Shown: positions 2,728 through 41,262 of the stretch, piece by piece
How positions within the stretch are numbered: position 1 is the stretch's first letter
Layout of the letters: each line of letters starts with the position of its first letter
From: Escherichia phage BEK2
DNA: 46,880 nucleotides
Reading direction: 5' to 3' (one strand)
Sequence record: MN158206.1
Notes under the pieces: generated by a model
Seen by the model: the letters and a program-made list of their open reading frames with translations, nothing else
What the model was told of the DNA's origin: nothing
The model's database searches: none
Program-made: the position numbers and the translations under genes

Positions 2728-3111
2728 ATGGGACGCACTTCAAAGGTTGTATATCTTGGAAGCAACACTGGAGAGTGTGGTGGTTTTACAGTAGGAAAGG
2801 AATATAAGGCTTACAATTATAATACTGAATATAATTACATTTCAACTTATGATGATAAAGGTAGCTATCGTCAAATCAAGAACGGAGCATTCCACCACTT
2901 CAAACTCCATGATGAGGATGACCATTTTGTAACTGAGACTGAGTGCGCAGTCATGCAGCCCAGCGAAGATAAAAAACCATCTCTAATATATTGCATAAAC
3001 GGTCATGAAGTTGACATGATTGAGTTTGAAAATGTGCGCCATAAGGTTCTAGAGCTTGATGCTTATGGCGTAAAATGCGACACAATCAAGTTCGAAGTAA
3101 AATTCGAGTAA
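2728..3111 (+). CDS. hypothetical protein (insulated cassette between terL and portal)
   Basis: 127 aa; GAGAGGAG SD before ATG 2728. Bounded by P1 and terminator 3133-3155. N-terminus carries the FTVGKEY...YDDKG small-domain signature seen in other cassette-first genes. Confidence 0.6.
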   Translation: MGRTSKVVYLGSNTGECGGFTVGKEYKAYNYNTEYNYISTYDDKGSYRQIKNGAFHHFKLHDEDDHFVTETECAVMQPSEDKKPSLIYCINGHEVDMIEFENVRHKVLELDAYGVKCDTIKFEVKFE

Positions 3112-3132
3112 TCAAAAACTGTGTGATAAACT

Positions 3133-3155
3133 AGCCCCTAAATGGGGCTTTTTTT
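3133..3155 (+). terminator. rho-independent terminator
   Basis: AGCCCC-TAAAT-GGGGCT followed by T7. Confidence 0.8.
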
Positions 3156-3168
3156 ATTGGAGAAAAAC

Positions 3169-4437
3169 ATGGTTAAGACAGACAGCTACGCCAATATATT
3201 TCTCGGCGGCAGTGATGGTAGTGAGATTTACGGGAGCTTACAGAATCAGGAACCTACAATTCTGGGTTCGCTTTATGCAAATAATGCCATAGTGCGTAGA
3301 ATTATCGACACAATCCCTGAGACAGCATTAGCGGCAGGATTCCACATTGATGGCATTGATGATGAGCCTGCCTTCTGGTCACGCTGGGATGATCTAGAAA
3401 TGACGCAGAATATTAACGATGCTTGGTCTTGGGCTAGATTATTCGGTGGAGCCGCTATTGTCGCTATCGTTAAGGACAATAGGGCGCTAACAAGTCCTGT
3501 CAGAGAAGGTGCCGAACTTGAAACTGTTAGAGTTTACGACCGCACACAAGTAAAAGTACAAACTCGCGAGGAGAATCCCCGTAACGCACGTTTTGGTAAG
3601 CCACTAACCTATCGCATTACCACAAATGAGAGCGATATGTTCTATGATGTGCATTACAGCAGAATTCACATCATTGACGGAGAGCGAATTCCTAACGTAA
3701 TGCGTCGGCAAAATGACGGCTGGGGCCGCAGCGTTCTATCCAGTGACATTCTTGACTCAATCAAGGATTACACCAACTGCGAACGACTGGCTACGCAACT
3801 ACTGAGAAGAAAGCAGCAAGCAGTGTGGAAAGCCAAAGGTCTGGCTGAGTTGTGTGATGATAGCGAGGGATTTGGTGCCGCAAGGTTGCGCCTAGCACAG
3901 GTTGATAATAATAGCGGAGTTGGTCAGGCGATTGGGATTGATGCAGAATCTGAAGAGTATAGCGTTCTAAACTCTGACATTGGCGGGATTGATGCGTTTC
4001 TGGATAAGAAGTTTGACAGAATCGTTGCTCTGAGCGGTATTCATGAAATTATCCTCAAGAACAAAAACGTTGGCGGCGTGTCATCAAGTCAAAACACTGC
4101 ACTTGAGACATTCCACAAGCTAATTGACCGCAAGCGTAACTCTGAGCTGCTTCCTGTTCTTGAGTTCTTAATTCCGTTCATCGTTAACGTTGACGAATGG
4201 TCGGTTGAGTTTAACCCCTTAGCTCAGGAATCAAGCAAGGACAAAGCGGAGATTCTGGAGAGGAACGTAAACAGCATCGCGACGCTAATTGCATCTGGCG
4301 CTATGGATATTGATGAGGCGAGAGATACATTGCGTACAATCGCTCCAGAGGTTAAGATTAGTGACGGTTCAGTAGAGACAGAGGTGACAATTAGTGAAAC
4401 CAGTAACGACCCGCTGGAAGTATCCGCAGACAATTGA
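3169..4437 (+). CDS. portal protein
   Basis: 422 aa, located between terL and the Mu-F-like head protein. GGAG SD before ATG 3169 (the 3142 ATG lies inside the terminator hairpin). Acidic C-terminus. Confidence 0.75.
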   Translation: MVKTDSYANIFLGGSDGSEIYGSLQNQEPTILGSLYANNAIVRRIIDTIPETALAAGFHIDGIDDEPAFWSRWDDLEMTQNINDAWSWARLFGGAAIVAIVKDNRALTSPVREGAELETVRVYDRTQVKVQTREENPRNARFGKPLTYRITTNESDMFYDVHYSRIHIIDGERIPNVMRRQNDGWGRSVLSSDILDSIKDYTNCERLATQLLRRKQQAVWKAKGLAELCDDSEGFGAARLRLAQVDNNSGVGQAIGIDAESEEYSVLNSDIGGIDAFLDKKFDRIVALSGIHEIILKNKNVGGVSSSQNTALETFHKLIDRKRNSELLPVLEFLIPFIVNVDEWSVEFNPLAQESSKDKAEILERNVNSIATLIASGAMDIDEARDTLRTIAPEVKISDGSVETEVTISETSNDPLEVSADN

Positions 4438-5122
4438 GAGCCAGGTTAACCGCAATCTAAGTATTGCGGTAACTGAGTTAATTTCAGCAATGAAGGAGTC
4501 AGCAACAAGGCTTAAAATTGATACTGCGGAGGAACTGGAGGAGGAGGATGGATACCTTGATGGGGTAATTGCGGCATTGGTGGCTTCCTTTATATCAACA
4601 ATCCCAGCCATAGGGGCGGCGATATACAGATACAATAGCTCTCAATTTCTTGCGCTTGCAATCAAGACCGGAGGAAGATCCAACCCTAGCGTTCTAGACC
4701 TTGAAGTTAATGGCATTAATGGCGATGAGCCGTGGTATAATGATGACCTTAATCAGTGGGTTTACACCACAAACAAGTCAGCGATTAAATTACTGAATAA
4801 CATTAAAGATGACTTCATTCAAACGGCATCAACAGCACAGAATGGTGACTACGTTGAGTTATCAGATAGGTACAAAACATACAGAAAGCGAACGGCAAAC
4901 ATCGCATCTGGGATTGTGTCAAGCCTAAACTCTACACTTATGAGGCGGAGGATTGATGATGCTGGCGTTAGTCGTTACATCTGGCATGGTATGCTGGACG
5001 ATAGGGAGCGCCAGTCTCACATAGCAAGAGAAGGCCTTAGCTTTAAACTTGGTGGTAACGATATATTTCCAGGTCAAGAATACGGCTGTCGTTGTTGGTC
5101 TGTTCCAGATTGGGAATCATAA
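4394..5122 (+). CDS. head morphogenesis protein (Mu F / SPP1 gp7-like)
   Basis: C-terminal WHGMLDDRERQSHIAREG...PGQEYGCRCW matches the Mu F-type domain signature. GTG start with GAGGTG SD overlaps the portal 3' end; alternative ATG at 4492. Confidence 0.65.
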   Translation: MKPVTTRWKYPQTIESQVNRNLSIAVTELISAMKESATRLKIDTAEELEEEDGYLDGVIAALVASFISTIPAIGAAIYRYNSSQFLALAIKTGGRSNPSVLDLEVNGINGDEPWYNDDLNQWVYTTNKSAIKLLNNIKDDFIQTASTAQNGDYVELSDRYKTYRKRTANIASGIVSSLNSTLMRRRIDDAGVSRYIWHGMLDDRERQSHIAREGLSFKLGGNDIFPGQEYGCRCWSVPDWES

Positions 5123-5134
5123 TAGGAGAATTAA

Positions 5135-6223
5135 ATGAGTAAAATCCGCTATGATAGCGCGAAGGTGAAGGCTCGATTTGATGAAAACGGCTTTCTGGTT
5201 GATACCCCGATTGTTGCACGCGTCGGGGTGCAAACCTACTACCTTCCAGATGGCACAGAACGCAGAGAATTTAGACCAGCCTCGGAGGTCTTTAAGCCTG
5301 ATTCTCTGGATAGTTATCAGGGCAAACCAATTACATTAGGTCATGTATTTGTTAACTCAGATAATGCTAAAGAGGTCGTTGTAGGCGCGGTGTCTGGCTC
5401 AGCAATGCGTGAAGATTCAAATGTGATTGTTCCACTAACTGTTTACGACAAAGAATCAATCGAGAAGGCCAAAAATGGAATTGCTGGTGAGCTATCTGTA
5501 GGGTACTCAACTGTTGACGTTGAGTCCAAAGGCTGGGGTAGTAACGAAACTGGTGAGTATAAGCTAGATGGTGAGTATCAATCACAGGATGAAATTCCTC
5601 CTGACTGGGTTAGATTCGATGCGCTGCAAACTGAAATTAAAGTAAACCATGTCGCGCTGGTATACAAAGGAAGAGCGCAAGTAGCAAAGTTAAATTTTGA
5701 CGCTCAACAGGAAAACCCGTATACTACTGACGTTGATATCAATAAAGAGGATAAACAGGAAATGATTAAGATTAAACTCGACGGCGCGCAGGAATTCGAA
5801 GTTGCACCGGAAATCGCTTCTCACATCGAAGCACTGAACGCAAAGGCTGACACTGCAATCGCAGAGCGCGACGCACTGAAAGCCAAGGTTGATGCAATGC
5901 CTGCTGAAATCGAAGCTGCAGTTGCTAAAGCGAAAGCTGATGCTGATGCCCTGGCCGCTCTGGTTGCCGTTGCCGCTGAAGCTGGTGTCAAAGCTGATGG
6001 TCTGGATTCTAAAGGTATTAAAGTTGCCTACGTTAAAGAAATCTCCGGCCTTGATGTTAGTGAGAAGTCTGACGCATACATCGACGCGGCATTCGACATT
6101 GCCAAAGAATCTGATAAAATGGCTGAAGTACGTAAAGCGACTACCTCTTCCGATAAATCTGACAGCGCCGATGAGCCTAAGAAATTAGATCCGCGTGCTC
6201 GTTTAGCTAAAATTAAGAAATAA
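5135..6223 (+). CDS. head scaffolding protein (putative)
   Basis: 362 aa. Globular N-terminal part, then an Ala/Lys/Glu-rich helical tail (AERDALKAKVDAMPAEIEAAVAKAKADADALAAL). Position is between the Mu-F-like and capsid genes. AGGAG SD. Confidence 0.5.
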   Translation: MSKIRYDSAKVKARFDENGFLVDTPIVARVGVQTYYLPDGTERREFRPASEVFKPDSLDSYQGKPITLGHVFVNSDNAKEVVVGAVSGSAMREDSNVIVPLTVYDKESIEKAKNGIAGELSVGYSTVDVESKGWGSNETGEYKLDGEYQSQDEIPPDWVRFDALQTEIKVNHVALVYKGRAQVAKLNFDAQQENPYTTDVDINKEDKQEMIKIKLDGAQEFEVAPEIASHIEALNAKADTAIAERDALKAKVDAMPAEIEAAVAKAKADADALAALVAVAAEAGVKADGLDSKGIKVAYVKEISGLDVSEKSDAYIDAAFDIAKESDKMAEVRKATTSSDKSDSADEPKKLDPRARLAKIKK

Positions 6224-6235
6224 GGAGTTATAAAC

Positions 6236-6757
6236 ATGGCAATTCGTTCCGTAGCACTGGCTGGTATGATTTCTGATACTTCGCTCTATAACATCGACGG
6301 CGCTTGCGTGGTTGGCGGTGCAGCACCAATTCCGGTTGGCACTTTTGTTGGCGTAACTTCAGCTCAGCCTGTAGATGGTCACAAGGTTGTTGGCCTACCA
6401 GTCGTAACTGGCTCGGCAGTTAAACCTTATGGTGTTGTTGTTAAATCTCATTACGAGACTCCAGATGGCACAGCTCGCGTAAATGAAGCAGTTAACGTAA
6501 TGACTCATGGTCGAATCTGGGTTCGTACAACTCTAGCGGCTGCGCCAGTTTTTGGTAGTAAGGTTTACGTAAACGCGAGTGGCGTTGTTACTACTGAGGT
6601 TGCTACCACTACTTGGGAGACTGGCTTTACATTTGCTGGCGGTTATGTGTCGGCTTACGCTGGCGGCGCTGACCCAATTAAGCAAGGTGAAAGCGTTGAT
6701 GGCGCACTGGTTGAAGTTCAGTTGATTCAATCCGCAGACTCAACCGTCGCCGCTTAA
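6236..6757 (+). CDS. capsid accessory/decoration protein (putative)
   Basis: 173 aa, Gly/Val/Ala-rich, AAGGAG SD. Lies immediately upstream of the major capsid unit and is followed by a strong terminator. Function inferred from position only. Confidence 0.4.
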   Translation: MAIRSVALAGMISDTSLYNIDGACVVGGAAPIPVGTFVGVTSAQPVDGHKVVGLPVVTGSAVKPYGVVVKSHYETPDGTARVNEAVNVMTHGRIWVRTTLAAAPVFGSKVYVNASGVVTTEVATTTWETGFTFAGGYVSAYAGGADPIKQGESVDGALVEVQLIQSADSTVAA

Positions 6758-6775
6758 TAATTAAGATATATAAAG

Positions 6776-6796
6776 CCTCCTTCGGGAGGTTTTTTT
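6776..6796 (+). terminator. rho-independent terminator (UUCG loop)
   Basis: CCTCC-TTCG-GGAGG followed by T7. Confidence 0.85.
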
Positions 6797-6802
6797 ATAC
6801 CA

Positions 6803-6830
6803 TTGCGTGGGCTAAAAACTCGTGTATAAT
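6803..6830 (+). promoter_or_regulatory. sigma70-type promoter for the capsid gene
   Basis: TTGCGT (6803-6808), 16-nt spacer, TATAAT (6825-6830). No palindromic box. Confidence 0.6.
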
Positions 6831-6868
6831 GAATCCGTAGACACCTAACCGAAAAGGAACAATAAAGA

Positions 6869-17059: not shown

Positions 17060-20000
17060 ATGGCACAAATGATCAAAACAAACATGAGGCTTTGTGATAT
17101 GGCTGAAGATATTAAGATTTATGGTGCTAAGGGTGGTAGTCAGAAGCCGCATCAACCGGTGGAGCAGGAAGATAACCTCATTTCACTAAACAAGGTTAAG
17201 GTGTTGCTTGCTGTCGCTGACGGAGAGGTTGATTCAAACTTCTCAATGAAGGATTTATACCTTGCTGACGTTCCGGTGCAAAACCAGGATGGTAGCTACA
17301 ACTACGAAGGTGTTCGCGCTGAGTTCCGTGCTGGAACGCAGTATCAGGACTATATCGCTGGCCTTGATGGTGCAAACTCAGAGATTCAGGCATCAAGGGA
17401 AATCAAAAACGATACCCCGTACATCATTGCGGTTAACAATACTCAGCTATCGGCGATTCGTGTAAAACTATATTGGCCTCGACTGGTTAAGCAAGAAAGC
17501 AATGGAGACCTGAACGGAACAACTTGTGAGTACGCAATTGACCTGTCTGTTAATGGTGGAGCGTATCAGGAATACACTCGAGGAGTTGCTAACGGGAAGA
17601 CAACTACAGGTTACGACCGCAGCATTCGTGTAAACCTTCCGGCTGAATTTGATAGCGCATTGGTTCGCATCAGAAAGATTACGACAGATTCGACGAGTAG
17701 CACATTGGTTAACGGGATGCAGATTACAACCTATCAGGAAGTAATTGACGCTAAATTCCGCTATCCGCTTACAGCTCTTGTTTACGTTGAGTTTGGCTCT
17801 GACCTTTTTCCTAACGGTATCCCGACAATCTCTATCAAGAAGCGATGGAAGTTGATTCAGGTTCCTACAAACTATGACCCTGAAAGCAGAACTTATAGTG
17901 GCACATGGAATGGTATATTTAAAATGGCATGGTCAAATAACCCTGCGTGGGTTCTTTATGACTTAGTGACAAACCGCCGATATGGTCTTGATCAGAGAGA
18001 GCTTGGTGTAGAGATTGATAAGTGGGGTCTGTACGAAGCTGCGCAATTCTGTGACCAAATGGTTCCAGATGGAAAAGGCGGCATGGAGCCGCGCTACCTG
18101 TGCGATATGGTTGTGCAGAATAAAGTTGAGGCTTACACGCTAATTCGTGATATCTGTTCGATCTTCCGTGGCCTGACTTTCTATGATGGCGAAAAGATTG
18201 GTATCGTAGTTGATAAGCCTCGTAATCCATCTTACATCTTCACGAATGATAACGTTGTAAACGGATTGTTCAGCCGCACCTTTGCCAGTGATAAAAGCCT
18301 TTACACCACGGCAAACGTTCAGTTTGATGATGTTGAGAACAACTATCAGCAGGATATTGAACCAGTATTCGAATTAGAGGCAACTCGTCGTTTTGGATTT
18401 AACCCTGTAGATTTAACTGCGATTGGATGTACTCGCAGAAGTGAAGCAAACAGACGTGGCAGATGGCTACTGAAAACCAACCTGAGAAGCGAAACCATCA
18501 GCTTCACTACCGGGTTGGAAGGTATGATTCCGATGATTGGTGAGGTTATTGCGGTCAATGACGCGGCATGGTCGAGCAACTATCAGTTAAACCTTTCCGG
18601 TCGCATTGAATCAGTCCAGGGATTGCAGGTTTTTACCCCGTTTAAAGTTGACGCAGCGCCTGGCGACAGGATTCTTCTGAACAAGCCTGACGGAAATCCA
18701 GAAGCAAGAACTATTGCAAGCATTTCGGAAGATGGTAGGACGATTAACCTAAACACGGCGTTCAGCTTTGTAGCTCAGCCTGATACTGTGTTCGCAATTG
18801 ATAAGGATAATCTGGCACTTCAGCAGTATGTTGTGACCGGTATTCAAAAAGCAGATACTGATGGTAAGGACTCATTCCAGTATACGATTACTGCGGTAGA
18901 GTACGACCCTAACAAGTATGACGAGATTGACTACGGCGTTAACATTGCTGACCGCCCGACTTCAATTGTGGAACCTGACAGATTGTCGCCACCAGAAAAC
19001 CTGACCGTTTCAAGCTATAGTAAGGTTGTTCAGGGATTATCAGTTGAGACGATGGTAATTGGTTGGGATAAGGCGCCATACGCTAAAACTTACAATGTTC
19101 AGTGGAGGAAAGAGAACGGCAACTGGATTAACGTACCCAGAACAGCTAGCACAGAGGTTGATATCGAAGGTATTTACGCAGGAATCTATGACGTCAGGGT
19201 TCGCAGCGTATCAGATACTGAAAACGTTTCTGCCTGGTCTGACATTGTAACTGTTTCGCTAACTGGCAAGATTGGTCGACCATCTGCGCCTACGGTTATC
19301 ACTGCGTCAACTGATGAAGTATTTGGTATCCGTGTTAAATGGGGATTCCCTGAAGGCTCTGGCGATACTGCTTACACTGAACTTCAGCAGGTTCCAGATA
19401 ATGGTGATGGTACTTACAATCCTGATAGCGCCAGTCTGTTAACTTTGGTCCCGTATCCTCAGTATGAATACTGGCACACACCGATTCAACCAGGCAAGGT
19501 GATTTGGTATCGCGCAAGATTGATTGACAGAATCGGCAATACCTCTGATTGGTCTTATTTCGCTAGAGGCATGAGTACTGACGACGCCAGCATCATCAAC
19601 GATTATATCAAGGTTGATATTGAGGGTTCGGAAGGATTCAAATACCTCGAGCAGAATGCGATTCAAAAGAATCAGGACATTCAGAATCAAGCTGAGGCAA
19701 TTATCGAGAACGCATTGGCTAATGATGGTGATGTTCGTCGCATGACAAAGGAGAACGGCAAACGTAAGGCTGAATATGTTCAGGCAGTTAATCTCATAGC
19801 CGATGAAACTCAGGCGCGTGTAGAGGCTCTCACGCAGCTTAAAGCGCAGATAGATGATGAAATTGTTGGTCAGATTACAACAATTGAAACAGCGCTAGCT
19901 ACAGAGACTGAAGCCAGGGCAACAGCTGACACGGCTTTAACCGCAAGGATTGGTGATAACGAGGCGGCAATAAACCAGAAGCTAGACGCGTTCTCTAATG

Positions 20001-23320: not shown

Positions 23321-23645
23321 ACAGTTACACGTAACCGATGTAACTCGATGTATACAATCTCATTCGCGGAAAATGATATACGCGCCGTTACGCAAATTTA
23401 CGCAATAGTTACATTAAAATATCTATATATATCAACCTTTTACTATTATTATTATTATATATATTACTGTGTATATCATGTAACTACTGTTCTGGAGTGT
23501 TCCGGTTATAATTTTAATATCATGTGGATTTATACAGTATTGTGTGGCAGCCATACCAATGCACCCCCCGCAAGAAACGGTATACACGATATACACGATG
23601 GTTACATTGAGCTATATCTGGGCTGAGATGCCATTTTACGTAACA
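23321..23645. repeat. non-coding iteron/AT-rich region A (homolog of 41906-42231)
   Basis: More than 8 copies of GTAAC/GTTAC (often CGTAAC). (TA)n and (TAT)n runs (23443-23466). TATACACGA x2 (23581-23598). A 42-nt block (23603-23644) is 36/42 identical to 42189-42230. Only junk ORFs (poly-Tyr). Confidence 0.8.
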
Positions 23646-23699
23646 AGTTGCAATGCCTACACGGAATTACAAGTATTCACGCGTAAGTTTAAATCAACG

Positions 23700-24944: not shown

Positions 24945-24988
24945 ATAGCACGAATTGCTAAAACAAGGTGGGATAGCTGAGGTATAGT
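24945..24988 (+). promoter_or_regulatory. box promoter cassette P7
   Basis: ATAGCACGAATTGCTAAA (24945-24962) directly after the stop TAA, 22-nt spacer, TATAGT (24983-24988). Confidence 0.65.
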
Positions 24989-25020: not shown

Positions 25021-25200
25021 GTGAGAATATTTGAAAGTAAAAGCTGTAGCGACATTGAGATATTCGTTAATGAAAATGATGGATTAATTCAAACAATAGA
25101 CATATACCAAGATGGAGATGTTGTCGTTATAAGTGAAAAATGTAAGGCGATAGAGATTGCAGAATATATTTTAAAAATTTCAGAATACCTTGAGGACTGA
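25021..25200 (+). CDS. hypothetical small protein
   Basis: 59 aa, below the ORF-track cutoff. GTG start with GAGG about 10 nt upstream. Stop is 1 nt before the erf ATG. Contains IDIYQDGDVVVI, resembling the small-domain family. Confidence 0.45.
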   Translation: MRIFESKSCSDIEIFVNENDGLIQTIDIYQDGDVVVISEKCKAIEIAEYILKISEYLED

Positions 25201-25201
25201 C

Positions 25202-27598: not shown

Positions 27599-29116
27599 TT
27601 AAATTGTGAGGTCTACGTATAGTGGTTTGTGGTCACCTATAGCGAGAGGTGTATCTACAGAGCCATATTCACCTTGTTCTGAAAAACCTTTGTGGAATAT
27701 GCGATCAAGATACCATGTACCGCCGTTATTGCTGGTATTAATCTCCCCATTCCGGTTAACCATTGTGAAACCTGCGTCTATGAATGGTTGAAAATCAGAA
27801 TCGTTGTTGGTGTTCCAGTCACCCATCAATACGACATGGCTGTGTGTTTCTGCTGCAGCCATGCTTGCTAACTCGGTTATCATGGCACTAATGCGTTCCT
27901 GTGATAGCGCTAGATGAGTATTATAAACTACAACCGTTGTGCCGTTAACTTTCATCTCAGCTCTTACATAACTCCTGTATTCTGTGTCGCCTACTGTTGG
28001 TTGAGATAAGAAACGGGATCCGGTGACATTGGTTAGCGGTCGAGTTGAAGCTACCATGTTCCCGTAGTTTCTACCGAAGCTGAACCACTCTGAAGTTGAC
28101 TGGAAACCCGATCCGTAAGGGTAAAGCGCTAATTCGGATGCTCGCAAGTTGGGTACAGTATAGCTTTCCTGGCCGCCAACAAAATCCGCACCTATCCGTA
28201 GCCACCAAGTATTAATGTCAACGATTCGCTGCCTGTTAGCGTAGTCACCACCGAAATATCCACTTATACTGCCGGCTCCCCAGTTGTTCCAAGTGACGAA
28301 ACGAACCTTGTTAGAAGTAATTGCGTCTTCGCGCTCTCGAATCATCTGGCGTACGTTATCAGTTGAAGTTGCGACGATCTGTTCCCTAAGGGTAGCATCT
28401 GTTAGGCCAATCCATGCTGTCGGGCCTATTCCGCCAGTCGAATCCACGGTTGAGTTTGCTGGAACAACCTTAGGAAGTTCACCTCCCCACACGTAAGATG
28501 CTGCATTGCCATCTTTAATATCTATTATTTGCTGTGTTTTTGATTCAATTGTAACGCCATCCTGAAAGCTACCAATTAAGGCACCAGAAACAGAAGCGGC
28601 ACTTGCTGCGGCCTGTTGCGCAGATGTGGAAGCTGATGATGCGCTCAATTCGGATGATTGCTTATCCTGTGATACCTGATAAGCATCACTTGATACTTGA
28701 GCGCCAATGGTGACAATTTCTCCATATTGTGTGTTAATTTGGTTAACATCATTTGAAAATTTATCCTGATCAAAATCCTTAAAAACATCAACAGCTGTTG
28801 CAACTTCCGTTTCACGTGACTGGTAGTAACGAAGAGTTTCTGCAACATCCTGAGCCAAACCTTGAACGGTAATCCCATCGTGCGCAAGGATTGCGTAACC
28901 AGTTCCAGCAGGAACGGTTTCAGAGTTGGGGTTGTAAACATTAATCTGCGTATCGCTGATAATTTCTGAGATGGTGTAAATCTGTACCGGCTCTGTTTTA
29001 AATACAATGGTTGCACCAACTCTGATCAGTGTAAGTGGTGCCTTCCATGTTGTACCTACGCCAATAACCTCGCCATTTGCGGCCAGCGAAGCTGTTCCTA
29101 AGTCATAAATTGCCAT
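27599..29116 (-). CDS. tail fibre-like protein with C-terminal endonuclease/exonuclease/phosphatase (EEP) domain
   Basis: 505 aa from ATG 29116 (AAGGAG SD). Fibre-like N-terminus and a Ser/Ala-rich linker (SSELSASSASTSAQQAAASAASVS). EEP motifs: VTWNNWG, GGQE, VYNTHL, GDWN, LDRIF, GDHKP. Confidence 0.7.
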   Translation of the reverse strand: MAIYDLGTASLAANGEVIGVGTTWKAPLTLIRVGATIVFKTEPVQIYTISEIISDTQINVYNPNSETVPAGTGYAILAHDGITVQGLAQDVAETLRYYQSRETEVATAVDVFKDFDQDKFSNDVNQINTQYGEIVTIGAQVSSDAYQVSQDKQSSELSASSASTSAQQAAASAASVSGALIGSFQDGVTIESKTQQIIDIKDGNAASYVWGGELPKVVPANSTVDSTGGIGPTAWIGLTDATLREQIVATSTDNVRQMIREREDAITSNKVRFVTWNNWGAGSISGYFGGDYANRQRIVDINTWWLRIGADFVGGQESYTVPNLRASELALYPYGSGFQSTSEWFSFGRNYGNMVASTRPLTNVTGSRFLSQPTVGDTEYRSYVRAEMKVNGTTVVVYNTHLALSQERISAMITELASMAAAETHSHVVLMGDWNTNNDSDFQPFIDAGFTMVNRNGEINTSNNGGTWYLDRIFHKGFSEQGEYGSVDTPLAIGDHKPLYVDLTI

Positions 29117-29139
29117 CGTGTAAAGTCTCCTTTTGTAAA

Positions 29140-29157
29140 ATAGCACGAATTGCTAAG
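29140..29157 (+). promoter_or_regulatory. orphan box copy, antisense to the local operon
   Basis: ATAGCACGAATTGCTAAG on the + strand between two minus-strand genes. Nearest -10-like hexamer is TATAAA (29180-29185) at 24 nt, and it runs straight into the terminator hairpin. Confidence 0.5.
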
Positions 29158-29182: not shown

Positions 29183-29204
29183 AAAAAACCTCCCGAAGGA
29201 GGTT
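29183..29204 (-). terminator. rho-independent terminator (UUCG loop on minus strand)
   Basis: Minus strand: AACCTCC-TTCG-GGAGGTT followed by T6. Overlaps the primase stop codon. Confidence 0.8.
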
Positions 29205-30126
29205 AGCTATTCAATAAGTCACTTGCCTTATATATCTTCTTCCTGATGCCGCTCTTGAATGAGTATTCATCATTTGGTATTACCACGTCAATACACCTGT
29301 CATCCGCAACGCAAAGCAACTCTCTGTCAAGTTTGCACGCCACTCTCAGCTTTTGGTTTCTAAGCGCGTAAGCAACCATTTCCATGTTGTAACTGGAGTA
29401 GCAAACAAGCACACAGCGGTTGCCAGTAGCAATGTGAACACGATAGCCGTCAATGAGATTATCGACCAGATAAGCGAACTCACCATCCTTAAGGGAACCA
29501 ATAACAGCCACAGACTGGCGAGTGTAATCTTTTGCGGCATAACTAACATCTCCTTCTTCATTGATAAACATTACATTGCACATTTCTTCTGATATACCAT
29601 CACCATAAGCCATGAAGCAAGGTATTGCATGGATTAATTCACCTGATTTTGCTCTACCAACATCAAAGCCAAACTCGCTATAGATTCCCTCGTATATACT
29701 GAGTGGGGTTGATTCTACTCTTTCCGTCCTTCCCATTATCTCTAAGCATCTTTCGTGGTCAATTTGAGCGCCCATTTTGTAGAGCTGGGTTCTTGATGCT
29801 TGCTTGTTTGCCTTGTTGACAACCTCAACCGGGATAAGGTTTAGCCACTCACCGAGAACGTCGATACACTCACTGAATGACTCGCCTCGCAGCTTCTGGA
29901 CCCAGAGAATTCCATCCCCTGAGCCGCACTGGTTGCAGATAATGCCACCATCACCATCTTCGCTAACCTTGTTTGTCCATCTCGCGCGATCGTTTCCACC
30001 GCAATAGATGCATGGCTTGTGCTTCTTGGTCTGGAAAAACTTAGGATCTGCGCCGCAGATGTTTATAAGCGCCTTATCCCACAGTCCGCGCATTCTTGGT
30101 AGAACCTCTTTCTTATCGTAGTGCAT
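29203..30126 (-). CDS. DNA primase (zinc-ribbon type)
   Basis: N-terminal CIYCGG...CNQCGSGDG zinc-binding pattern as in P4-alpha/T1-type primases. Lies in the replication gene neighbourhood. Confidence 0.6.
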   Translation of the reverse strand: MHYDKKEVLPRMRGLWDKALINICGADPKFFQTKKHKPCIYCGGNDRARWTNKVSEDGDGGIICNQCGSGDGILWVQKLRGESFSECIDVLGEWLNLIPVEVVNKANKQASRTQLYKMGAQIDHERCLEIMGRTERVESTPLSIYEGIYSEFGFDVGRAKSGELIHAIPCFMAYGDGISEEMCNVMFINEEGDVSYAAKDYTRQSVAVIGSLKDGEFAYLVDNLIDGYRVHIATGNRCVLVCYSSYNMEMVAYALRNQKLRVACKLDRELLCVADDRCIDVVIPNDEYSFKSGIRKKIYKASDLLNS

Positions 30127-33028: not shown

Positions 33029-33444
33029 AAATTACAGACAAAGTTGACTACATTGAGTTTTACCATGGCCCGGTTAAGTCTTGCCCGAAAGAGGATGACG
33101 AGCAAATCTTTTGCTCTGATTGGGTTAAGTATAACTATCCAGAGATGGTATTTTTCCACTGCGTGAATGAGGGTAAGAAAACCATTGGTCAGGCAAGAAA
33201 AGACCAGGCCAAGGGGCTTCTCAAAGGCGTATCAGACTGTATGTTTCTTATTCCCGAATCTATCCGAGGAAAGTACCCTTTCGGAGCCATAGAGCTAAAG
33301 AGGGCTGGGAAGACGCAGGCTAGTCCGGTCAGCGACGAGCAGAAGTCATTCCTTAAAAGCGTAAGAGAATCAGGAGGTTTTGCCGGGGTAGCCTACGGTC
33401 GCGAGGGTTTTCTAGCGGCGTTTAAAGAAATGATTTCAAAATAG
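33025..33444 (+). CDS. VRR-NUC domain nuclease
   Basis: GVSDCMF...GAIELKRAG has the D...ExK arrangement. ATGA overlap with the helicase gene. Confidence 0.7.
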   Translation: MKITDKVDYIEFYHGPVKSCPKEDDEQIFCSDWVKYNYPEMVFFHCVNEGKKTIGQARKDQAKGLLKGVSDCMFLIPESIRGKYPFGAIELKRAGKTQASPVSDEQKSFLKSVRESGGFAGVAYGREGFLAAFKEMISK

Positions 33445-33484
33445 CACGAATTGCTAAAGACGTTTCGTTGAGTTGGTGTATTAT
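33441..33484 (+). promoter_or_regulatory. box promoter cassette P12
   Basis: ATAGCACGAATTGCTAAA (33441-33458; stop TAG inside), 22-nt spacer, TGtATTAT/TATTAT (33479-33484), leader CATCGAAACGAAACG (33490-33504). Confidence 0.7.
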
Positions 33485-33522: not shown

Positions 33523-33723
33523 ATGGCTACTATCTTTACTGGTAAAATCTACGAATCACGCAAAACTGGTTATGAATATGAGTTGGTTATCACAGAAGAT
33601 GGTTACATACTTACTGATACTGATGATATGTCTTACGCATTCGAAGTTAGCCCGACTTACAAAGATGACCTGGAAACTGTTAAAAACGCATTTGGCGAAA
33701 AATTTGATGAGGTATTCGAATAA
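33523..33723 (+). CDS. hypothetical small protein (FTGKIYE...ITEDG family)
   Basis: 66 aa. Preferred over overlapping ORF 33473-33742 because it follows the leader/SD and couples (TAATG) to the next gene. Confidence 0.6.
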   Translation: MATIFTGKIYESRKTGYEYELVITEDGYILTDTDDMSYAFEVSPTYKDDLETVKNAFGEKFDEVFE

Positions 33724-35781: not shown

Positions 35782-35825
35782 ATAGCACTTTTTGCCTAAA
35801 GCATGCCGTAGAAATGCGGCATAAT
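35782..35825 (+). promoter_or_regulatory. box promoter cassette P13 (1-nt insertion variant)
   Basis: ATAGCACTTTTTGCCTAAA (35782-35800) directly after the stop TAA, an ATGCCG/CGGCAT hairpin in the spacer, CATAAT (35820-35825). Confidence 0.5.
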
Positions 35826-35866: not shown

Positions 35867-36043
35867 ATGACTAAAATGATTTATTGCACCAAAAACAATT
35901 CCAAGACCCTGCCATTTACAGTTAACCAGCCGTACAACGCAGAGTACCAGGGCGATGGATATTACAAGATTTATGGAGACGATATGAAGCACATCTTAGC
36001 GCCGATTGATGGTTCGTTGGTTGAATTTATTATCGCTGACTAG
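35867..36043 (+). CDS. hypothetical small protein (FTVNQPY...YGDD family)
   Basis: 58 aa, below the track cutoff. Follows P13 and is followed by a strong terminator. Confidence 0.5.
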   Translation: MTKMIYCTKNNSKTLPFTVNQPYNAEYQGDGYYKIYGDDMKHILAPIDGSLVEFIIAD

Positions 36044-36070
36044 CGCAGCAAAAACATAGTGTTACGAACG

Positions 36071-36095
36071 GGGAGCCTTTTGGCTCCCTTTTTTT
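36071..36095 (+). terminator. rho-independent terminator
   Basis: GGGAGCC-TTTT-GGCTCCC followed by T7. Confidence 0.85.
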
Positions 36096-36875: not shown

Positions 36876-37240
36876 TGATGTGCGTAGCTTTATCTGGATG
36901 CTCAGCAACATCTGCTCTGACCGGGTTAATTGGCAGCAAGCCAGAGATTAGCGCACAGGCTGGAGCAGAAAACAACAATGTTGGAGTTGGGTTAACGAAT
37001 AAGGTTGACCACAGTAACTCCAGCGATGCCACCGTCAAAGATTCTAAGGTTGGTTCACTAGATAGCTCGAGCGGGAAAAAGACTTCTGATAACTCTATTA
37101 AGGCATCAACAATCACGGCAGAAAAGATTGAGATTACAAACAACGAATCATCAGCGCTTCCGTGGGTTGGAACTGGGGCTATGGGGTTACTGGTTTTTGT
37201 TCTCCTGGCCGTAATCTTAAGACGTAAAAAAGCCTCCTAA
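36851..37240 (+). CDS. unimolecular spanin (u-spanin)
   Basis: Lipobox LSG-C at the N-terminus plus a C-terminal TM (WVGTGAMGLLVFVLLAVIL) in one 129-aa chain, as in T1 gp11. Overlaps the endolysin 3' end. Confidence 0.75.
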   Translation: MLKWIAALVMCVALSGCSATSALTGLIGSKPEISAQAGAENNNVGVGLTNKVDHSNSSDATVKDSKVGSLDSSSGKKTSDNSIKASTITAEKIEITNNESSALPWVGTGAMGLLVFVLLAVILRRKKAS

Positions 37241-37258
37241 TGGAGGCTATGCTTTTCT
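37226..37258. terminator. bidirectional terminator
   Basis: AGCCTCC-TAAT-GGAGGCT flanked by an A-run and T-runs, between convergent genes. Confidence 0.7.
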
Positions 37259-37265
37259 TTTCTAT

Positions 37266-37463
37266 TTAATCTCTTTCAACCGTGAAAGTTTTGCTAAATT
37301 GCTCATTTGTCATAGTTACAAATCCATTTCTGTGCTTAACCTTCATGTTTTCACTTCCGGCATACATATACTCATATACTCTACCGACAGTAAAGTAAAT
37401 GAAGCACATTTCCTCTCTCTCACTCAGGTTTGCAAAAGACATGCCTTTATATTTGGCCTTCAT
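37266..37463 (-). CDS. hypothetical small protein (FTVGRVYE family)
   Basis: 65 aa, AAGGA SD, first gene after P14. Confidence 0.55.
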   Translation of the reverse strand: MKAKYKGMSFANLSEREEMCFIYFTVGRVYEYMYAGSENMKVKHRNGFVTMTNEQFSKTFTVERD

Positions 37464-37499
37464 GATAATTTCCTTTCTCTTCTTAGTTTATATGGATTA

Positions 37500-37543
37500 A
37501 TAATAACAAAAGCCCACAAGGGGCTTTTAACAAAAGGTGCTAT
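37500..37543 (-). promoter_or_regulatory. box promoter cassette P14 with nested terminator
   Basis: Minus strand: ATAGCACCTTTTGTTAAA (37543-37526) right after the stop TAA, a 22-nt spacer holding a hairpin plus T-run, TATTAT (37505-37500). Confidence 0.55.
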
Positions 37544-37879
37544 TTAAGAGAATAACTCGTCGTCCGTCATTGTTCCTATATTCATCATCTCTTTTATGTA
37601 CTTGCTCTCATACCCGCTAAGTGCCTCGAAATTGAAATCAAACGGCCTCTTCAGGCTACCCTTGCTAACAAACTCACCACACTTACCATTAATGTAACCC
37701 GCACTCAACATCTTCGCGCAAAACTCCTTTGAAGCAGCGCTGCAAAATTCCCTATGCGACAACCCGGCGGCTTTGCTAAATCTCTGAGAGTCCTTGTGTT
37801 GGTAGATGAATCGCGCCAAATGCTGCCGTGTGAAATATGAATACGACTCGCAGAACTTAAATATATCTAGCAGGAACAT
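37544..37879 (-). CDS. hypothetical protein
   Basis: 111 aa. Start lies 4 nt after the stop of the P-loop gene (GGGGTG SD). Confidence 0.6.
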   Translation of the reverse strand: MFLLDIFKFCESYSYFTRQHLARFIYQHKDSQRFSKAAGLSHREFCSAASKEFCAKMLSAGYINGKCGEFVSKGSLKRPFDFNFEALSGYESKYIKEMMNIGTMTDDELFS

Positions 37880-37882
37880 TCA

Positions 37883-39466
37883 TCACCCCAGCAGTCGCGG
37901 ATTAATGTAAACCTTATCACCAATCAGGCACGTGTAGTTTTTCTCGTCAAGCATTGGCAGTAGGTGATCTTTAATCTTCGTCATTACCCCAGCCTGAGCC
38001 TCGAACGGCTTAACCTTTCGAGCAGCTTCATATAATGAGCGAATACCAACTACACCCTTGCCGTTCTTTCCTTGCTTGATCAGGATATCAATCAGCTTAT
38101 TCATCTCGGCATTATCGCCAGCGTGACCAGCGGCGTTAGCAGATGAAAGATAAGTCTTGCTAAGTTCATTGAACATAATTACAGCTTCTTGCATGGTATC
38201 AAGCTCAATCTCTCTTGACTTCTGTGGACTCCCGCCATTTGGGTTAAACCAGTTACGCACAGTGTGAAGAACCGCCGCAATCCTGATGGCCTGCTTATCG
38301 AACTTACCCAGGGCGCCGCGCAACATTGTGTGGGAATACTTCCCGCCGTCCGCAAGGTGAGGCTCCATCTCCTGACGTGCGCGGTTAAGATACTTCATTG
38401 CTGAGTTGCTCACTGTCAACTTAACATCTTGCTCATTCATTATTTCATGAACTAATCGGAAATAGTCGGCCTTGAGTCCACCATCAATTGGCTCATATGT
38501 TGAATCTCCATTCTCATCAACAAACACACGCTCGCCCAAAAATGACTTTTCACGCACAAGCAGAAATCGCTCCGACACACCGATACCACGTGCGCCAGCG
38601 TTCATGATTGCATTGATTGTTTCGTCTTGCGCAATTACTGAGATGCAACCCATAGCAACGAAGCTCATGTTGTTCTCTGCGTTCGCACGCGCAATGGACA
38701 CGTTACCAGCATCCCATGCCTTCAGTACAAGTTCGCTGTTCGTCTTCTTGGATCCGTCACCGTACGTCATACCTAGCAGTGAGTTGACGCTCGTCGCCTC
38801 ATCAGAGATAACCGCGAAGTTACCTTGTCGGTTGTTTATTCGTGCCAGACCTTCCGGCGTGGTGTCGGATACAGGGAAAACGATATCACAAAGTTTCTCG
38901 AGCTTTTCCTCAAGCTCCTCCTTCTCCTCAAAAAGAGAAGCCATCTCTGAAGGAGATTTCTCCTGCTTCATCTCTTTGGATAATGCAGATAGTTTGGCCA
39001 TGATCTTCTTGCGCTCACGCTTGCGAACTTCATTAAGACGCTCAGTCTCAGCAATCATTGGAGCAATCGATAGCGAGTTAATTGCTGATTTACCAGTTGA
39101 TGGCGGCTGGCTTGTCACGACGTAGAGCGCAGTTGGTTGTTGGGTTCCATGATACTCAACTGTAAATCGGCCCAGCATCGCAGCGGAAATACACCCCAGG
39201 AAGTGCATGTATGCGGACGACTCAGGAAACTGAACCGAACGAGCTATGTTAGATGACAGTTTGCCAACAACATCAATATCATTACCTAGTGAGATTACGG
39301 GATACTTGTCATTAGCTGCATCAATCTCGACCGGAGCCTTCCAAAATGATTGAGAATGACGATAGCCATTGGCATTGATAGCGACGCGCAGGGGTGGGAG
39401 GTTGTCCGCAGCAGCAATTGCCATAACCTGTTCAACAGACAGTTTATCTTCGTTGAAATCAAACAT
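37883..39466 (-). CDS. P-loop NTPase, DUF3987/YfjI-like (candidate replication initiator/helicase-type protein)
   Basis: 527 aa. Walker A SQPPSTGKSA, Walker B NFAVISDEAT. N-terminal 42 aa and C-terminal ~70 aa are paralogous to ORF 42798-43322. Family name is from recollection and needs an HMM search. Confidence 0.6.
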   Translation of the reverse strand: MFDFNEDKLSVEQVMAIAAADNLPPLRVAINANGYRHSQSFWKAPVEIDAANDKYPVISLGNDIDVVGKLSSNIARSVQFPESSAYMHFLGCISAAMLGRFTVEYHGTQQPTALYVVTSQPPSTGKSAINSLSIAPMIAETERLNEVRKRERKKIMAKLSALSKEMKQEKSPSEMASLFEEKEELEEKLEKLCDIVFPVSDTTPEGLARINNRQGNFAVISDEATSVNSLLGMTYGDGSKKTNSELVLKAWDAGNVSIARANAENNMSFVAMGCISVIAQDETINAIMNAGARGIGVSERFLLVREKSFLGERVFVDENGDSTYEPIDGGLKADYFRLVHEIMNEQDVKLTVSNSAMKYLNRARQEMEPHLADGGKYSHTMLRGALGKFDKQAIRIAAVLHTVRNWFNPNGGSPQKSREIELDTMQEAVIMFNELSKTYLSSANAAGHAGDNAEMNKLIDILIKQGKNGKGVVGIRSLYEAARKVKPFEAQAGVMTKIKDHLLPMLDEKNYTCLIGDKVYINPRLLG

Positions 39467-39496
39467 TACTTCTCTCCGTATTGTTTCTGAGCGGAC

Positions 39497-39539
39497 ATTA
39501 TATCAACGACCGCTTATAATTCATTATCAATTTTGCTAT
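39497..39539 (-). promoter_or_regulatory. box promoter cassette P15 (variant box)
   Basis: Minus strand: ATAGCAAAATTGATAAT (39539-39523) right after the stop TAA. TTGATA is followed by a 22-nt spacer and TATAAT (39502-39497). Confidence 0.55.
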
Positions 39540-39893
39540 TTACAGGTATTGCGCCTCAAAATGGTACGTCTGGCAAAGAGTGTAAAATCCAACATCCTCG
39601 CTGCGGTAAAGCTGCCAAGCATTACCATCCTCATCGTAAATGTAACCGGCATTTTGCCCTATCCCGGCATGCATAGATACCTGGTAGCGCTTTCCTTCTT
39701 TAAAGTCTTTTTTAACTCCTGACTTGTGGTTAACCTTTGTGCAGTAAAGCGTCTTAGTCTTGACGTACTTACCGCGCTCTTCGAGGTTAACCCATTTGCC
39801 ATCTTTCTTAATCTGCTCCACACCATCTTTAACGCGAGCTTTGTAGAGTACGTTTTCGTTGCTGATCCAGCTTTTAGTAATCGTAGTGGTCAT
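39540..39893 (-). CDS. hypothetical protein (FKEGKRY...YDEDG family)
   Basis: 117 aa, AAGGA SD, first gene after P16. Confidence 0.6.
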   Translation of the reverse strand: MTTTITKSWISNENVLYKARVKDGVEQIKKDGKWVNLEERGKYVKTKTLYCTKVNHKSGVKKDFKEGKRYQVSMHAGIGQNAGYIYDEDGNAWQLYRSEDVGFYTLCQTYHFEAQYL

Positions 39894-39929
39894 TTTGTTT
39901 TCCTTTTCGTGTTTCGTTTCGATGAGATT

Positions 39930-39973
39930 AATATACAGGAAAAGCCCCGAAGGGCTTTAGCAATTAGTGCTAT
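39930..39973 (-). promoter_or_regulatory. box promoter cassette P16 with nested terminator
   Basis: Minus strand: ATAGCACTAATTGCTAAA (39973-39956), a 22-nt spacer containing AGCCC-TTCG-GGGCT, TATATT (39935-39930), leader CATCGAAACGAAAC. The box encodes NSTNC plus the stop of the upstream gene. Confidence 0.65.
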
Positions 39974-40208
39974 TTATTTCCTTGAGTCCAAGTGGCGTTA
40001 TCACTACCTTATACCAAGTTCCAATCTCTGGCTTATTTACATTATATGCCAGCTCTACATAACCTAGCCGAAATAGTTTTGGTATACCTCTGGATGACTT
40101 GCCACAATCACGAATCCTGCCGCGATTAAGGTCATAGCTTATTTGATGAATCTCTCCATTATGAATACAGTGGAGGGTTTTTATTGCGGATTCAGAAATT
40201 TTAATCAC
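39957..40208 (-). CDS. hypothetical protein
   Basis: 83 aa. GTG start in a GTGA overlap with the upstream micro-ORF. C-terminus NSTNC is encoded by the box. Confidence 0.5.
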   Translation of the reverse strand: MIKISESAIKTLHCIHNGEIHQISYDLNRGRIRDCGKSSRGIPKLFRLGYVELAYNVNKPEIGTWYKVVITPLGLKEINSTNC

Positions 40209-40375
40209 TTATTTTCACCGTTAATATTCTTCGCATTCTCTATCGCCTTGAGCATAATTTCATGACTCTCAAGCAAGTCCTCGCGGAACCAGTCGCCGCA
40301 AGGCCAGCCCTTACCAGACATCTTTGACACAACTTCAAAATCCCAATAACTCAAATCTGAAGGTAATAGCATCAT
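40205..40375 (-). CDS. hypothetical micro-protein
   Basis: 56 aa (MMLLPSDLSYWDFEVV...), translated by hand. ATGA and GTGA overlaps with both neighbours. Confidence 0.45.
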   Translation of the reverse strand: MMLLPSDLSYWDFEVVSKMSGKGWPCGDWFREDLLESHEIMLKAIENAKNINGENK

Positions 40376-40611
40376 TTCACCTCATCAAAAGTTGCAATCC
40401 CAGGAATAAACATTCCAACCTTCCATCCTGCAATGGCAATCCAGCCAGAATCGTTCTTGTGCGGTCGCTCAGCGCCTTTAATTAACCATTCGTTCGGGAT
40501 TGTCTTGCCGTTAATGATTAGTGGCTCAGCGTCGTACATAGAGCCTTTAACGAACGGTGTCAAAACCTTCTTATCGGTACTGGTAATAACGTTAGTGCAG
40601 CGAATTTTCAT
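40372..40611 (-). CDS. hypothetical protein
   Basis: 79 aa, ATGA coupling at both ends. Confidence 0.55.
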   Translation of the reverse strand: MKIRCTNVITSTDKKVLTPFVKGSMYDAEPLIINGKTIPNEWLIKGAERPHKNDSGWIAIAGWKVGMFIPGIATFDEVK

Positions 40612-40781
40612 TGCACCACCTCAAACTCACCAGGGTGAATAACAAGCGGTTTAGATGTGCCATCCATTATTACCACCCTACCATCTCCGCAATCCATGAA
40701 TACATCGTAAACTTCGCCAATCTCAATGCCGTAATAATCTGTTGTGTAAATCGTGTCAAACTTAACAATCTTAATTTTCAT
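40608..40781 (-). CDS. hypothetical micro-protein
   Basis: 57 aa (MKIKIVKFDTIYTTDYYGIEIGEVYDVF...), translated by hand. ATGA overlap downstream. Confidence 0.45.
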   Translation of the reverse strand: MKIKIVKFDTIYTTDYYGIEIGEVYDVFMDCGDGRVVIMDGTSKPLVIHPGEFEVVQ

Positions 40782-40791
40782 ATCTCAATCC

Positions 40792-40968
40792 TCAAAATGG
40801 AATGCAGTCTTGGCAGCCAAGTCCATCGCAGCACAGGAATTCATCCTCTGACTGGAATTGCTTAGCCAGATCAATATCTATTCGTCCGCGGACAACCATT
40901 TCGGTGTAATCTTCGTTAAGACCAATCAGTGCGCATTCGTGACGTAACTTATCTTTATCAATCTTCAT
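40792..40968 (-). CDS. hypothetical micro-protein (Cys-rich C-terminus)
   Basis: 58 aa (MKIDKDKLRHECALIG...LCCDGLGCQDCIPF), translated by hand. Weak SD. Confidence 0.4.
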   Translation of the reverse strand: MKIDKDKLRHECALIGLNEDYTEMVVRGRIDIDLAKQFQSEDEFLCCDGLGCQDCIPF

Positions 40969-41022
40969 ATCTATACCATCGTTTGGTTTGTGCCGGATGT
41001 CGTCCGGCGGCGATATAATTTA

Positions 41023-41262
41023 TTAGTGCTGCTTTGCTGTGTAAAACTTCCAGTCATCCTGGACTTCAATCAATGTCCCGTTGGCTATCATTGCACTAAG
41101 GCTATCTTCAGTAAGGAGAGTTCTCAGCCAGGTATATTTGTTTCCTACGCGAACATTGCCACAGTTATTAAACACGCTACCGTTTACCAGCATCATCTCA
41201 ACGCCTTTTGAGCCAGGCTTAGTGAAGAGGCGTTTTTCTGTTTTAGTGGTCTGGATGCTCAT
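41023..41262 (-). CDS. hypothetical protein
   Basis: 79 aa, GGAG SD, first gene after P17. Confidence 0.55.
   Translation of the reverse strand: MSIQTTKTEKRLFTKPGSKGVEMMLVNGSVFNNCGNVRVGNKYTWLRTLLTEDSLSAMIANGTLIEVQDDWKFYTAKQH

Follow-up and report, generated by a model that had tools for sequence, protein, structure and literature searches.

Small-protein genes of the BEK2 genome

The stretch of Escherichia phage BEK2 considered here (sequence record MN158206.1; 46,880 nt, referred to throughout as the window) encodes 72 proteins and differs at 9 nucleotides from the record of Escherichia phage BEK3 (MN158207.1), a phage classified as Drexlerviridae, Braunvirinae, Rtp-like. A preliminary description, made from the sequence alone, had singled out nine small proteins dispersed across this genome as a single family in which one small beta domain is present many times. 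These proteins, designated A through I, all carry the annotation "hypothetical protein" in MN158207.1, and each of the nine peptide strings originally quoted for them is found in an open reading frame (ORF) at the position reported for it. The analyses presented below indicate that the domain is indeed present many times, in seven proteins, A through G, which very probably share one SH3-like, five-strand beta-barrel of approximately 55 residues.

The genes encoding these proteins are located in several different modules of the genome. A (127 aa; 2728-3111, plus strand) is encoded between the terminase and portal genes, and its residues 4-61 (nt 2737-2910) form the SH3-like domain. B (66 aa; 33523-33723, plus strand) matches the domain with residues 1-40, from the G-K-x-Y motif on, strand 1 being absent. 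C (58 aa; 35867-36043, plus strand), encoded before the lysis cassette, is a minimal standalone domain that belongs to Pfam DUF7244 and to the T1 gp14 / Rtp62 family, and D (65 aa; 37266-37463, minus strand) is a lineage-specific member. E (117 aa; 39540-39893, minus strand), of the T1 gp07 / Rtp69 family, precedes the gene for a DUF3987 protein that is a putative helicase in related phages; its residues 46-113 (nt 39555-39758) comprise the domain and one extra strand, and its residues 7-43 (nt 39765-39875) are probably a degenerate second copy. G (57 aa; 40608-40781, minus strand), a standalone domain, and F (79 aa; 40372-40611, minus strand), in which the match is confined to residues 1-37 (strand 1 and the motif), are encoded by internal operon genes of a small-gene cluster. 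Completing the original list of nine are H (59 aa; 25021-25200, plus strand) and I (79 aa; 41023-41262, minus strand).

Remote homology among the seven proteins

Pairwise comparison of the window proteins by all-against-all BLASTP yields no significant match between members, the best pair being C and E (13 aa, E=0.08). Of the two kinds of comparison suggested in the preliminary description, the pairwise one came out empty while the profile-based one gave significant results. The BLASTP outcome favors the view that the proteins have no common ancestry, that they display a convergent beta-hairpin grammar, and that they were picked for looking alike; the original selection also biases any similarity score. 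The motif itself is more frequent than in altered translations, as had been anticipated: the strict pattern [FILVMY]x[FILVM]G[KRE]xY occurs 4 times, compared to 0.6 times in shuffled and 0 times in reversed sequences, and G[KRE]xY is counted 17 times versus 7.2 +/- 2.6 in the control. These counts are partly circular, the patterns having been derived from the same data, and are not relied on here.

For profile comparison, more than 100 related Drexlerviridae loci were gathered and family alignments were built for all 40 window proteins of at most 140 aa; for A and E, larger collections of 43 and 146 homologues, respectively, were obtained to give deep alignments. P-values from a first pass of hhalign using shallow alignments proved loose, in that two short non-member pairs scored near 1e-4, a further point in favor of convergence, and this pass was replaced by deeper alignments accompanied by reversed-alignment decoys. 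With these, the N-terminal domain of A (A_N) aligns with C over 48 columns at a probability of 93% (P=3e-7, score 35.4, best decoy 18.8). The C-terminal domain of E (E_C) aligns, above reversed decoys, with A_N (P=2e-4) and with C (P=3e-4), and all three alignments display a single common register.

Searches with HMMER profiles provide additional support. A profile built from the homologues of A_N alone, evaluated against 8,907 reversed decoys (best 6.8 bits), ranks C (27.4 bits), D (11.1), G (10.6), and E (6.8) highest among the window proteins, with D and G above all of the decoys and the 65 other window proteins all at 2.2 bits or less. When each family in turn is left out of a converged profile, A (30.4 bits), C (34.5), E (24.2), D (14.8), and G (10.2) are recovered with none of the 8,907 decoys scoring as high; B reaches 5.4 bits (3 of 8,907 decoys as high) and F 5.3 bits (2 of 8,907). 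H and I fall to 0.8 bits (180 of 8,907 decoys as high) and 0.5 bits (243 of 8,907), respectively. Scoring at decoy level both here and with the A_N-only profile, these two proteins are rejected as members, and the proposed family of nine is reduced to A through G.

Blacklisting each family from the first iteration, which removes proxy circularity, leaves the ranking unchanged, with C at 25-32 bits, E at 13-19 bits (decoys 8-10), and D at approximately 10-11 bits. In the same test B scores 9.4-9.7 bits at iterations 1-2, with no decoy as high, and then 5-6.5 bits with 2-4 decoys as high; G lies above the decoys in the first iteration and at 4.8-7.5 bits in later ones. After the first iteration, 0-6 of 8,907 decoys score as high as B and G (p up to ~7e-4). 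The window copy of F is marginal in this test, and its diverged homologue L017_+3338 (phmmer E=7e-10 to F; 19.9 bits in the leave-one-family-out test) scores 19-20 bits with the F family blacklisted.

Models curated independently of this work yield the same links. The next-best PHROG family of both B and C is phrog_14592, that of A (B at E=0.045); 9 of the 43 A homologues match Pfam DUF7244 at sub-threshold level (best E=0.0065), a number far larger than for any other Pfam family; and four of the 43 match phrog_14327, the family of G. MAFFT alignment in the absence of profile guidance brings the motif together across all seven proteins, with an invariant tyrosine. Overall, the alignments cover 40-55 columns in one register that is consistent with both structure models discussed below, and bridging sequences and tandem arrays (P0205, P0177, P0184) exist. 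An exhaustive HMMER search of 1.84 billion representatives returned 49 significant matches, including new standalone members, two-domain homologues of E, and P0184. Among the matches of this search were also fn3 and WSC repeat proteins, which were set aside, their significance arising only through summed weak hairpin matches.

Other searches yielded no additional relatives. The nine proteins concatenated as one query returned no match among 5.8 billion proteins, the family profile found no sequence-related solved structure in the Protein Data Bank (PDB; best E=0.43), and matches of members to the PADLOC defense/anti-defense library were weak only (E>=0.015).

Taken together, the recovery of C at 27 bits by a profile made solely from A homologues, which also places D, G, and E ahead of all window proteins outside the family, the agreement of curated Pfam and PHROG models, the single register of the alignments, and the existence of bridging sequences make convergence in the absence of common ancestry very unlikely. 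From these comparisons, membership of A (N-terminal domain), C, and E (C-terminal domain) can be regarded as solid, that of D as supported, and that of G, B, and F as probable, F being the weakest accepted member.

Fold of the domain and meaning of the signature

Structure models place the conserved positions within a common architecture. The AlphaFold2 model of A (pLDDT 75) contains N-terminal strands at residues 4-12, 25-30, 37-41, 47-52, and 56-61, followed by a disordered linker (64-78) and a beta-beta-alpha-beta domain (86-126). E was likewise modeled with AlphaFold (pLDDT 84) and consists of beta structure throughout; its C-terminal half contains strands 48-54, 69-74, 81-86, 92-97, and 110-113, with an extra strand at 103-105. 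The five-strand SH3-like beta-barrel that defines DUF7244, a family of the SH3 clan, is the arrangement found. Foldseek searches of BFVD retrieve many phage proteins of 56-68 aa at TM 0.65-0.75, one of them a DUF7244 protein, and the model of E retrieves its own family and similar small barrels.

The domain consensus, MKTLYCTKNDSKTLTFTVGKRYEVEKTGDGAYKIIDDDGKALQLINGEGYEF, can be read directly onto this fold. Strand 1 corresponds to its K-x-h-x-C/h element and strand 5 to h-x-F-E. In the models of A and E, the long loop that follows strand 1 ends in F-T-x-G-K-x-Y, with which strand 2 begins, and the hairpin turn leading from strand 3 to strand 4 is D-[DE]-x-G; the turn from strand 4 into strand 5 is N-G. 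The shared signature thus marks fold-determining positions, and the beta-hairpin and D-[DE]-G turn originally guessed at are much as seen in the AlphaFold models. The conserved positions hold glycines of the turns and aromatic or hydrophobic residues of the core, and polar residues that look catalytic are absent from them. The surface properties of the members have diverged, their pI values ranging from 4.1 to 9.2.

Several considerations weigh against this assignment of homology and fold. Firstly, the AlphaFold models are those of A and E, and the folds of B, C, D, F, and G follow from sequence. Secondly, support for B, F, and G amounts to p ~1e-4 to 3e-3 or to transitivity alone, and D is one sequence. 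Finally, the superfamily profile also picks up the fn3 and WSC repeat proteins mentioned above, as convergence would have it, and the signature is therefore partly a generic beta-hairpin grammar.

The C-terminal domain of A presents features of its own. Across 43 homologues, residues 86-126 are conserved better than the SH3-like domain and end in a nearly invariant IKFEVKFE, and this domain is without family assignment. The label "virion structural protein" attached to the family of A was considered and rejected, no experimental support having been found for it; the seven proteins listed by virion proteomics of Jk06-like phages do not include the product of the ORF that precedes the portal gene.

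Relation to DUF7244 and the lysis module

A single member of the family, C, belongs to a domain family with a published account. C matches Pfam DUF7244 at 100.7 bits (gathering threshold 27); A, B, D, E, F, and G give no match to it at E<=1, and none of 68 E homologues matches it. Eremina et al. (April 2026, PMC13164509) described DUF7244 (T1 gp14) as a "standalone SH3 domain" encoded between the exonuclease and pinholin genes in 188 of 522 Drexlerviridae and proposed that it aids lysis, with no mention of paralogues or promoters. Within this group C has full membership, and the other six proteins share its fold signature at the level of remote homology. They differ from it in falling below the Pfam threshold and in not being encoded beside the holin-endolysin-spanin genes, an adjacency observed for C only; additionally, A and E are two-domain proteins, and the published account treats one lysis-associated gene.

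The position of C directly upstream of the holin-endolysin-spanin cassette, both here and in the 188 genomes cited above, together with the general fold that the family shares with the SH3b domains of Gram-positive endolysins, raises the possibility that these proteins are cell-wall-binding lysis auxiliaries that help the endolysin bind peptidoglycan. In T1-type lysis the endolysin is of the SAR type and the holin is a pinholin, whose lesions do not let folded proteins of the cytoplasm through; on this general knowledge, a cytoplasmic protein of 58 aa such as C should not reach the wall before lysis. Moreover, the 58 residues of C include no hydrophobic signal-like segment, a strong terminator (36070-36089) separates C from the holin gene (36120), no member matches an SH3b Pfam model at E<=1, the members being standalone or fused to non-lysin domains, and the six paralogues lie outside the lysis module, in the terminase-portal, putative-helicase, and small-gene regions. 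Because of these paralogues, the missing export signal, the terminator, and the limits set by the pinholin, a lysis-specific role of C is considered less likely, and a wall-binding role for the family as a whole is rather improbable. With the same domain present in the packaging, putative-helicase, and small-gene regions, the position of C beside the lysis genes may be incidental.

Similarity to a second Pfam family, DUF6501, is seen in P0184, a protein of 270 aa in which four tandem copies carry the same signature and which matches both DUF6501 and DUF7244. Two A homologues match DUF6501 weakly, and the window proteins give no match to it at E<=1. The window copies differ from such tandem arrays in being standalone or two-domain rather than long arrays.

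A generic box upstream of family members

The preliminary description had further held that most members are the first gene after a recurrent box, and that promoter and gene had multiplied as a unit. The box, ATAGCACNNNTTGCTAA, occurs 26 times in the window at three or fewer mismatches (5.9 expected), with 13 perfect occurrences and approximately 19 that look genuine. As ATAGCACnnnTTGCTAA, it is a near-palindrome of the form TAGCA-N5-TGCTA with ~19 sites across positions 504-45572 (e.g., 2649-2665, 24945-24961, and 41328-41344). An annotated gene lies downstream of 17 boxes, and in 14 of these cases the distance from box to ATG is 72-85 nt, whatever the gene. The layout consists of the box, 22 nt, a TATAGT-like hexamer, a conserved leader (CCATCGAAACGAA), and a ribosome-binding site, and the 22-nt stretch often holds the terminator hairpin of the preceding unit. 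A canonical sigma-70 scan leaves the box-associated sites undetected because TTGCTA sits 22 nt from the TATAGT-like hexamer. Counted from this spacing, the center of the box would lie near -42, as in an activator-dependent promoter rather than as in a -35 hexamer.

The box is the same element as a 21-nt intergenic repeat of phage TLS (aaATAGCACnnnTTGnTAAAA), for which 18 intergenic copies were reported and the function was left open (PMC11447400); the element is not specific to the present protein family. Gene 54 of phage Bas11 has the same box, and escape mutations located just upstream of it reduced expression of the gene (PMC11578894), indirect evidence that the region acts as a promoter.

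Within the window, boxes precede A (2649-2665, plus strand; perfect match, 79 nt to the ATG), B (33441-33457, plus strand; perfect, 82 nt), C (35782-35798, plus strand; two mismatches, 85 nt), D (37527-37543, minus strand; one mismatch, 80 nt), and E (39957-39973, minus strand; perfect, 80 nt), as well as H and I. F and G are internal to the operon begun by I, so the first-gene position originally ascribed to members applies to the former genes and not to these two. Boxes also precede genes for an HNH endonuclease, a Dcm-like methylase homologue, a Rha/Roi-like regulator, and many unrelated small proteins. A hairpin with a T-run, part of the terminator-like repeat D18, follows A (3134-3155), and a bidirectional terminator follows D (37231-37248). 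A, C, and D therefore resemble morons in that each has its own box, one gene, and a terminator, and D, as well as a second A-like gene of phage AugustePiccard, is present in some relatives and absent in others. In contrast to morons, B and E each begin an operon of several genes and F and G lie within one, so that these four fall outside the definition of own promoter, single gene, and own terminator, and the promoter is the phage's own generic one rather than a foreign one.

Additional observations concern boxes elsewhere in the window. A perfect box at 29140-29156 (plus strand) opposes the surrounding minus-strand genes for a tail fiber (27599-29146) and a primase (29203-30126); with no annotated plus-strand gene downstream, it may be an orphan site or the source of an antisense transcript that runs into the primase gene. 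The boxes at 44150 and 44321 are followed, at the canonical distance, by two unannotated tiny ORFs (~44232-44325 and ~44393-44485, both plus strand). Of these, one codes for a ~30-aa hydrophobic peptide (MISLLMIIPAVIALGLMVSAGEFYVPVNKK), and the other, GTG-started and ~29 aa in length, ends at the start of the gene at 44482.

Copy number, distribution, and age of the family

In a profile rescan of all six frames, the check that had been suggested for the proposed family, the seven proteins were recovered together with a weak match to the N-terminal half of E and a short additional ORF; the best decoy scored 2.9 bits. The window copy of the E N-terminal half scores 5.0 bits only. Homologues of E (L039_-3027, P0179, P0186, and P0193) contain two clear tandem copies; because E descends from such a tandem two-domain protein, domain copies in the window probably number eight. 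The additional ORF, an unannotated one of 36 aa (MTSYGSYTLGELYDAYY...; 45630-45740, plus strand), consists of the motif hairpin alone, scores 8.6 bits, and starts 74 nt past a degenerate box at 45556, the canonical first-gene position; judged by these features, it is possibly a remnant or mini-member.

Related genomes, in which expansion or contraction of the family had been suggested as a check, hold different sets of members. Rtp encodes E, C, A, B, Rtp57, and F; AugustePiccard encodes two A-like genes, one within the tail module; the 16 kb of Bas11 that were examined hold E, C, and bas11_0061; and in a T1-like contig C is accompanied by an E homologue in which two tandem copies are clear. 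The common members are F and C, which form clusters of 619 and 249 members, respectively. D, G, and B are rare, each being found in BEK2, BEK3, and one other contig; in the case of D, tblastn of the phage collection detects BEK3 only, the protein collection adds BEK2 and one other contig, and the cluster of D has 2 members.

The existence of box-gene-terminator cassettes invites the explanation that a box promoter and a small gene were recently duplicated as a unit in this lineage and then diverged very fast. Five of the seven members are first genes after a box, A, C, and D form cassettes, a second A-like cassette, complete with box, is present in the tail module of AugustePiccard, and members are weakly enriched among first genes (5/14 vs 2/26, Fisher p=0.04). 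Set against these points, the box heads ~19 units of every kind, the spacer and leader regions of members, from box to start, are not significantly more alike than those of other genes (Mann-Whitney p=0.11), E in Rtp is not first after a box, and the C and E orthologue groups are common to Rtp, Bas11, and the T1-like contig. Recent cassette amplification is accordingly highly improbable. Since the box precedes almost every transcription unit, duplication of promoter and gene as a unit, as originally pictured, is not supported. Furthermore, pairwise identities of 15-29% among window members and the presence of the C and E groups in several lineages mean that the copies are old and the amplification not recent. 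On these comparisons, they are ancient paralogues with ongoing gain and loss, membership varying between related phages.

In AugustePiccard (L030), the second A-like gene (17915-18232, plus strand) encodes two domains and is flanked by genes for minor tail proteins; a box of its own precedes it by 74 nt. The equivalent site in Rtp, between the minor tail genes rtp39 and rtp41, is occupied by the HNH endonuclease gene rtp40, and in AugustePiccard the A homologue at 2788 is immediately preceded by a gene for a putative homing endonuclease.

Proposed function and comparison with Gp54 of Bas11

The absence of catalytic-looking residues, the diverged pI values, and the placement of members in different modules lead to a reading of these proteins as standalone binding adaptors, a mechanism that is put forward tentatively and to which we assign less than an even chance. 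Under this proposal, one stable SH3-like scaffold would be reused as standalone binding modules, each member having its own host or phage partner. As to expression, A, B, C, D, and E each stand first behind the generic T1-type box and leader. Most members would probably be dispensable accessory factors, and such proteins may also be sensed by host immunity. Taken jointly, homology, fold, and the binding-adaptor mechanism make up an account towards which we lean with modest confidence.

An alternative is that the domains are nucleic-acid-binding small barrels of the KOW, Tudor, or retroviral integrase C-terminal domain type that aid replication, packaging, or transcription. This is plausible for the basic members, and above all for E, which is basic and encoded beside the DUF3987 putative helicase gene in BEK3, Rtp, and Bas11. 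E could thus bind nucleic acid rather than protein, a possibility that tells against the adaptor proposal, and might, for example, be an accessory of the adjacent putative helicase. Nucleic acid binding as the general role is nonetheless judged unlikely.

Returning to the adaptor proposal, the nearest structural and experimentally studied analogue of the family, by analogy only, would be Gp54 of phage Bas11 (PDB 9axb), a non-essential SH3-like barrel of 66 aa that triggers CapRel-SJ46 and binds its antitoxin domain via partial unfolding and strand addition (PMC11578894). Like members of the family, Gp54 is a small SH3-like barrel encoded behind its own box promoter; the gene context is the same, the N-terminal layout is similar, and the G24D escape mutation falls on a motif-like glycine. 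Gp54 differs in having six strands, compared to five in the family. As a sequence homologue, Gp54 was considered and rejected: hhalign of the Gp54 family against the 40 window families gave a best P of 0.012, to a non-member; in a superfamily HMM scan of Bas11, Gp54 remained below the reporting cut-off; and neither the concatenated members nor the family profile recovered 9axb when used to search the PDB. That no relationship is detectable counts against extending to the family what has been learned of Gp54. The link to Gp54, by fold and gene context alone, is of interest in that Gp54 is one of few small phage proteins directly sensed by bacterial immunity.

As a separate observation, the window gene that occupies the position of Bas11 gp54, first after a box and downstream of a gene of ~100 aa heading the minus-strand small-gene cluster, is that of I.

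A broader and more speculative extension would be that Drexlerviridae keep 5-8 diverged standalone SH3-like binders per genome, each tuned to a different host target or defense, mostly box-driven, gained and lost between relatives, and potential triggers of the CapRel type. We consider this extension improbable as it stands; if true, it would describe a counter-defense or takeover family that diversifies like the immune-evasion families of large eukaryotic viruses.

Other features of the genome

The sole clear paralogue pair that BLASTP detects in the proteome consists of the DUF3987 protein (527 aa; 37883-39466, minus strand) and a protein of 174 aa (42798-43322, plus strand). The latter matches the N-terminus (1-73) and C-terminus (448-526) of the former at 55-59% identity (E=4e-28) and, from these matches, looks like the DUF3987 protein without its DUF3987 core. 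Two stretches are duplicated ~18.6 kb apart, one at 23418-23475 and 41998-42055 (79% identity) and one of ~69 nt at 23603-23671 and 42189-42257 (72% identity). The former is AT-rich and the latter adjacent to it; each copy lies where minus- and plus-strand gene blocks diverge, and they may be duplicated regulatory or origin-like regions.

Implications for T1-like phages

C and the box have already been published; the family relation among the seven proteins appears not to have been described, a literature search having found no paper on a multi-copy family. With this finding, seven proteins annotated as hypothetical in a well-known group of phages are brought together in a single family for which a fold is predicted, providing a shared handle for experiments. 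It also bears on the recent proposal that the DUF7244 SH3 protein is a component of the lysis module. Host shut-off in T1-like phages has been listed as an open question (PMC11447400). If the members are diversified binders, they would be good candidates for host-takeover factors, anti-defense factors, or defense triggers in these phages.

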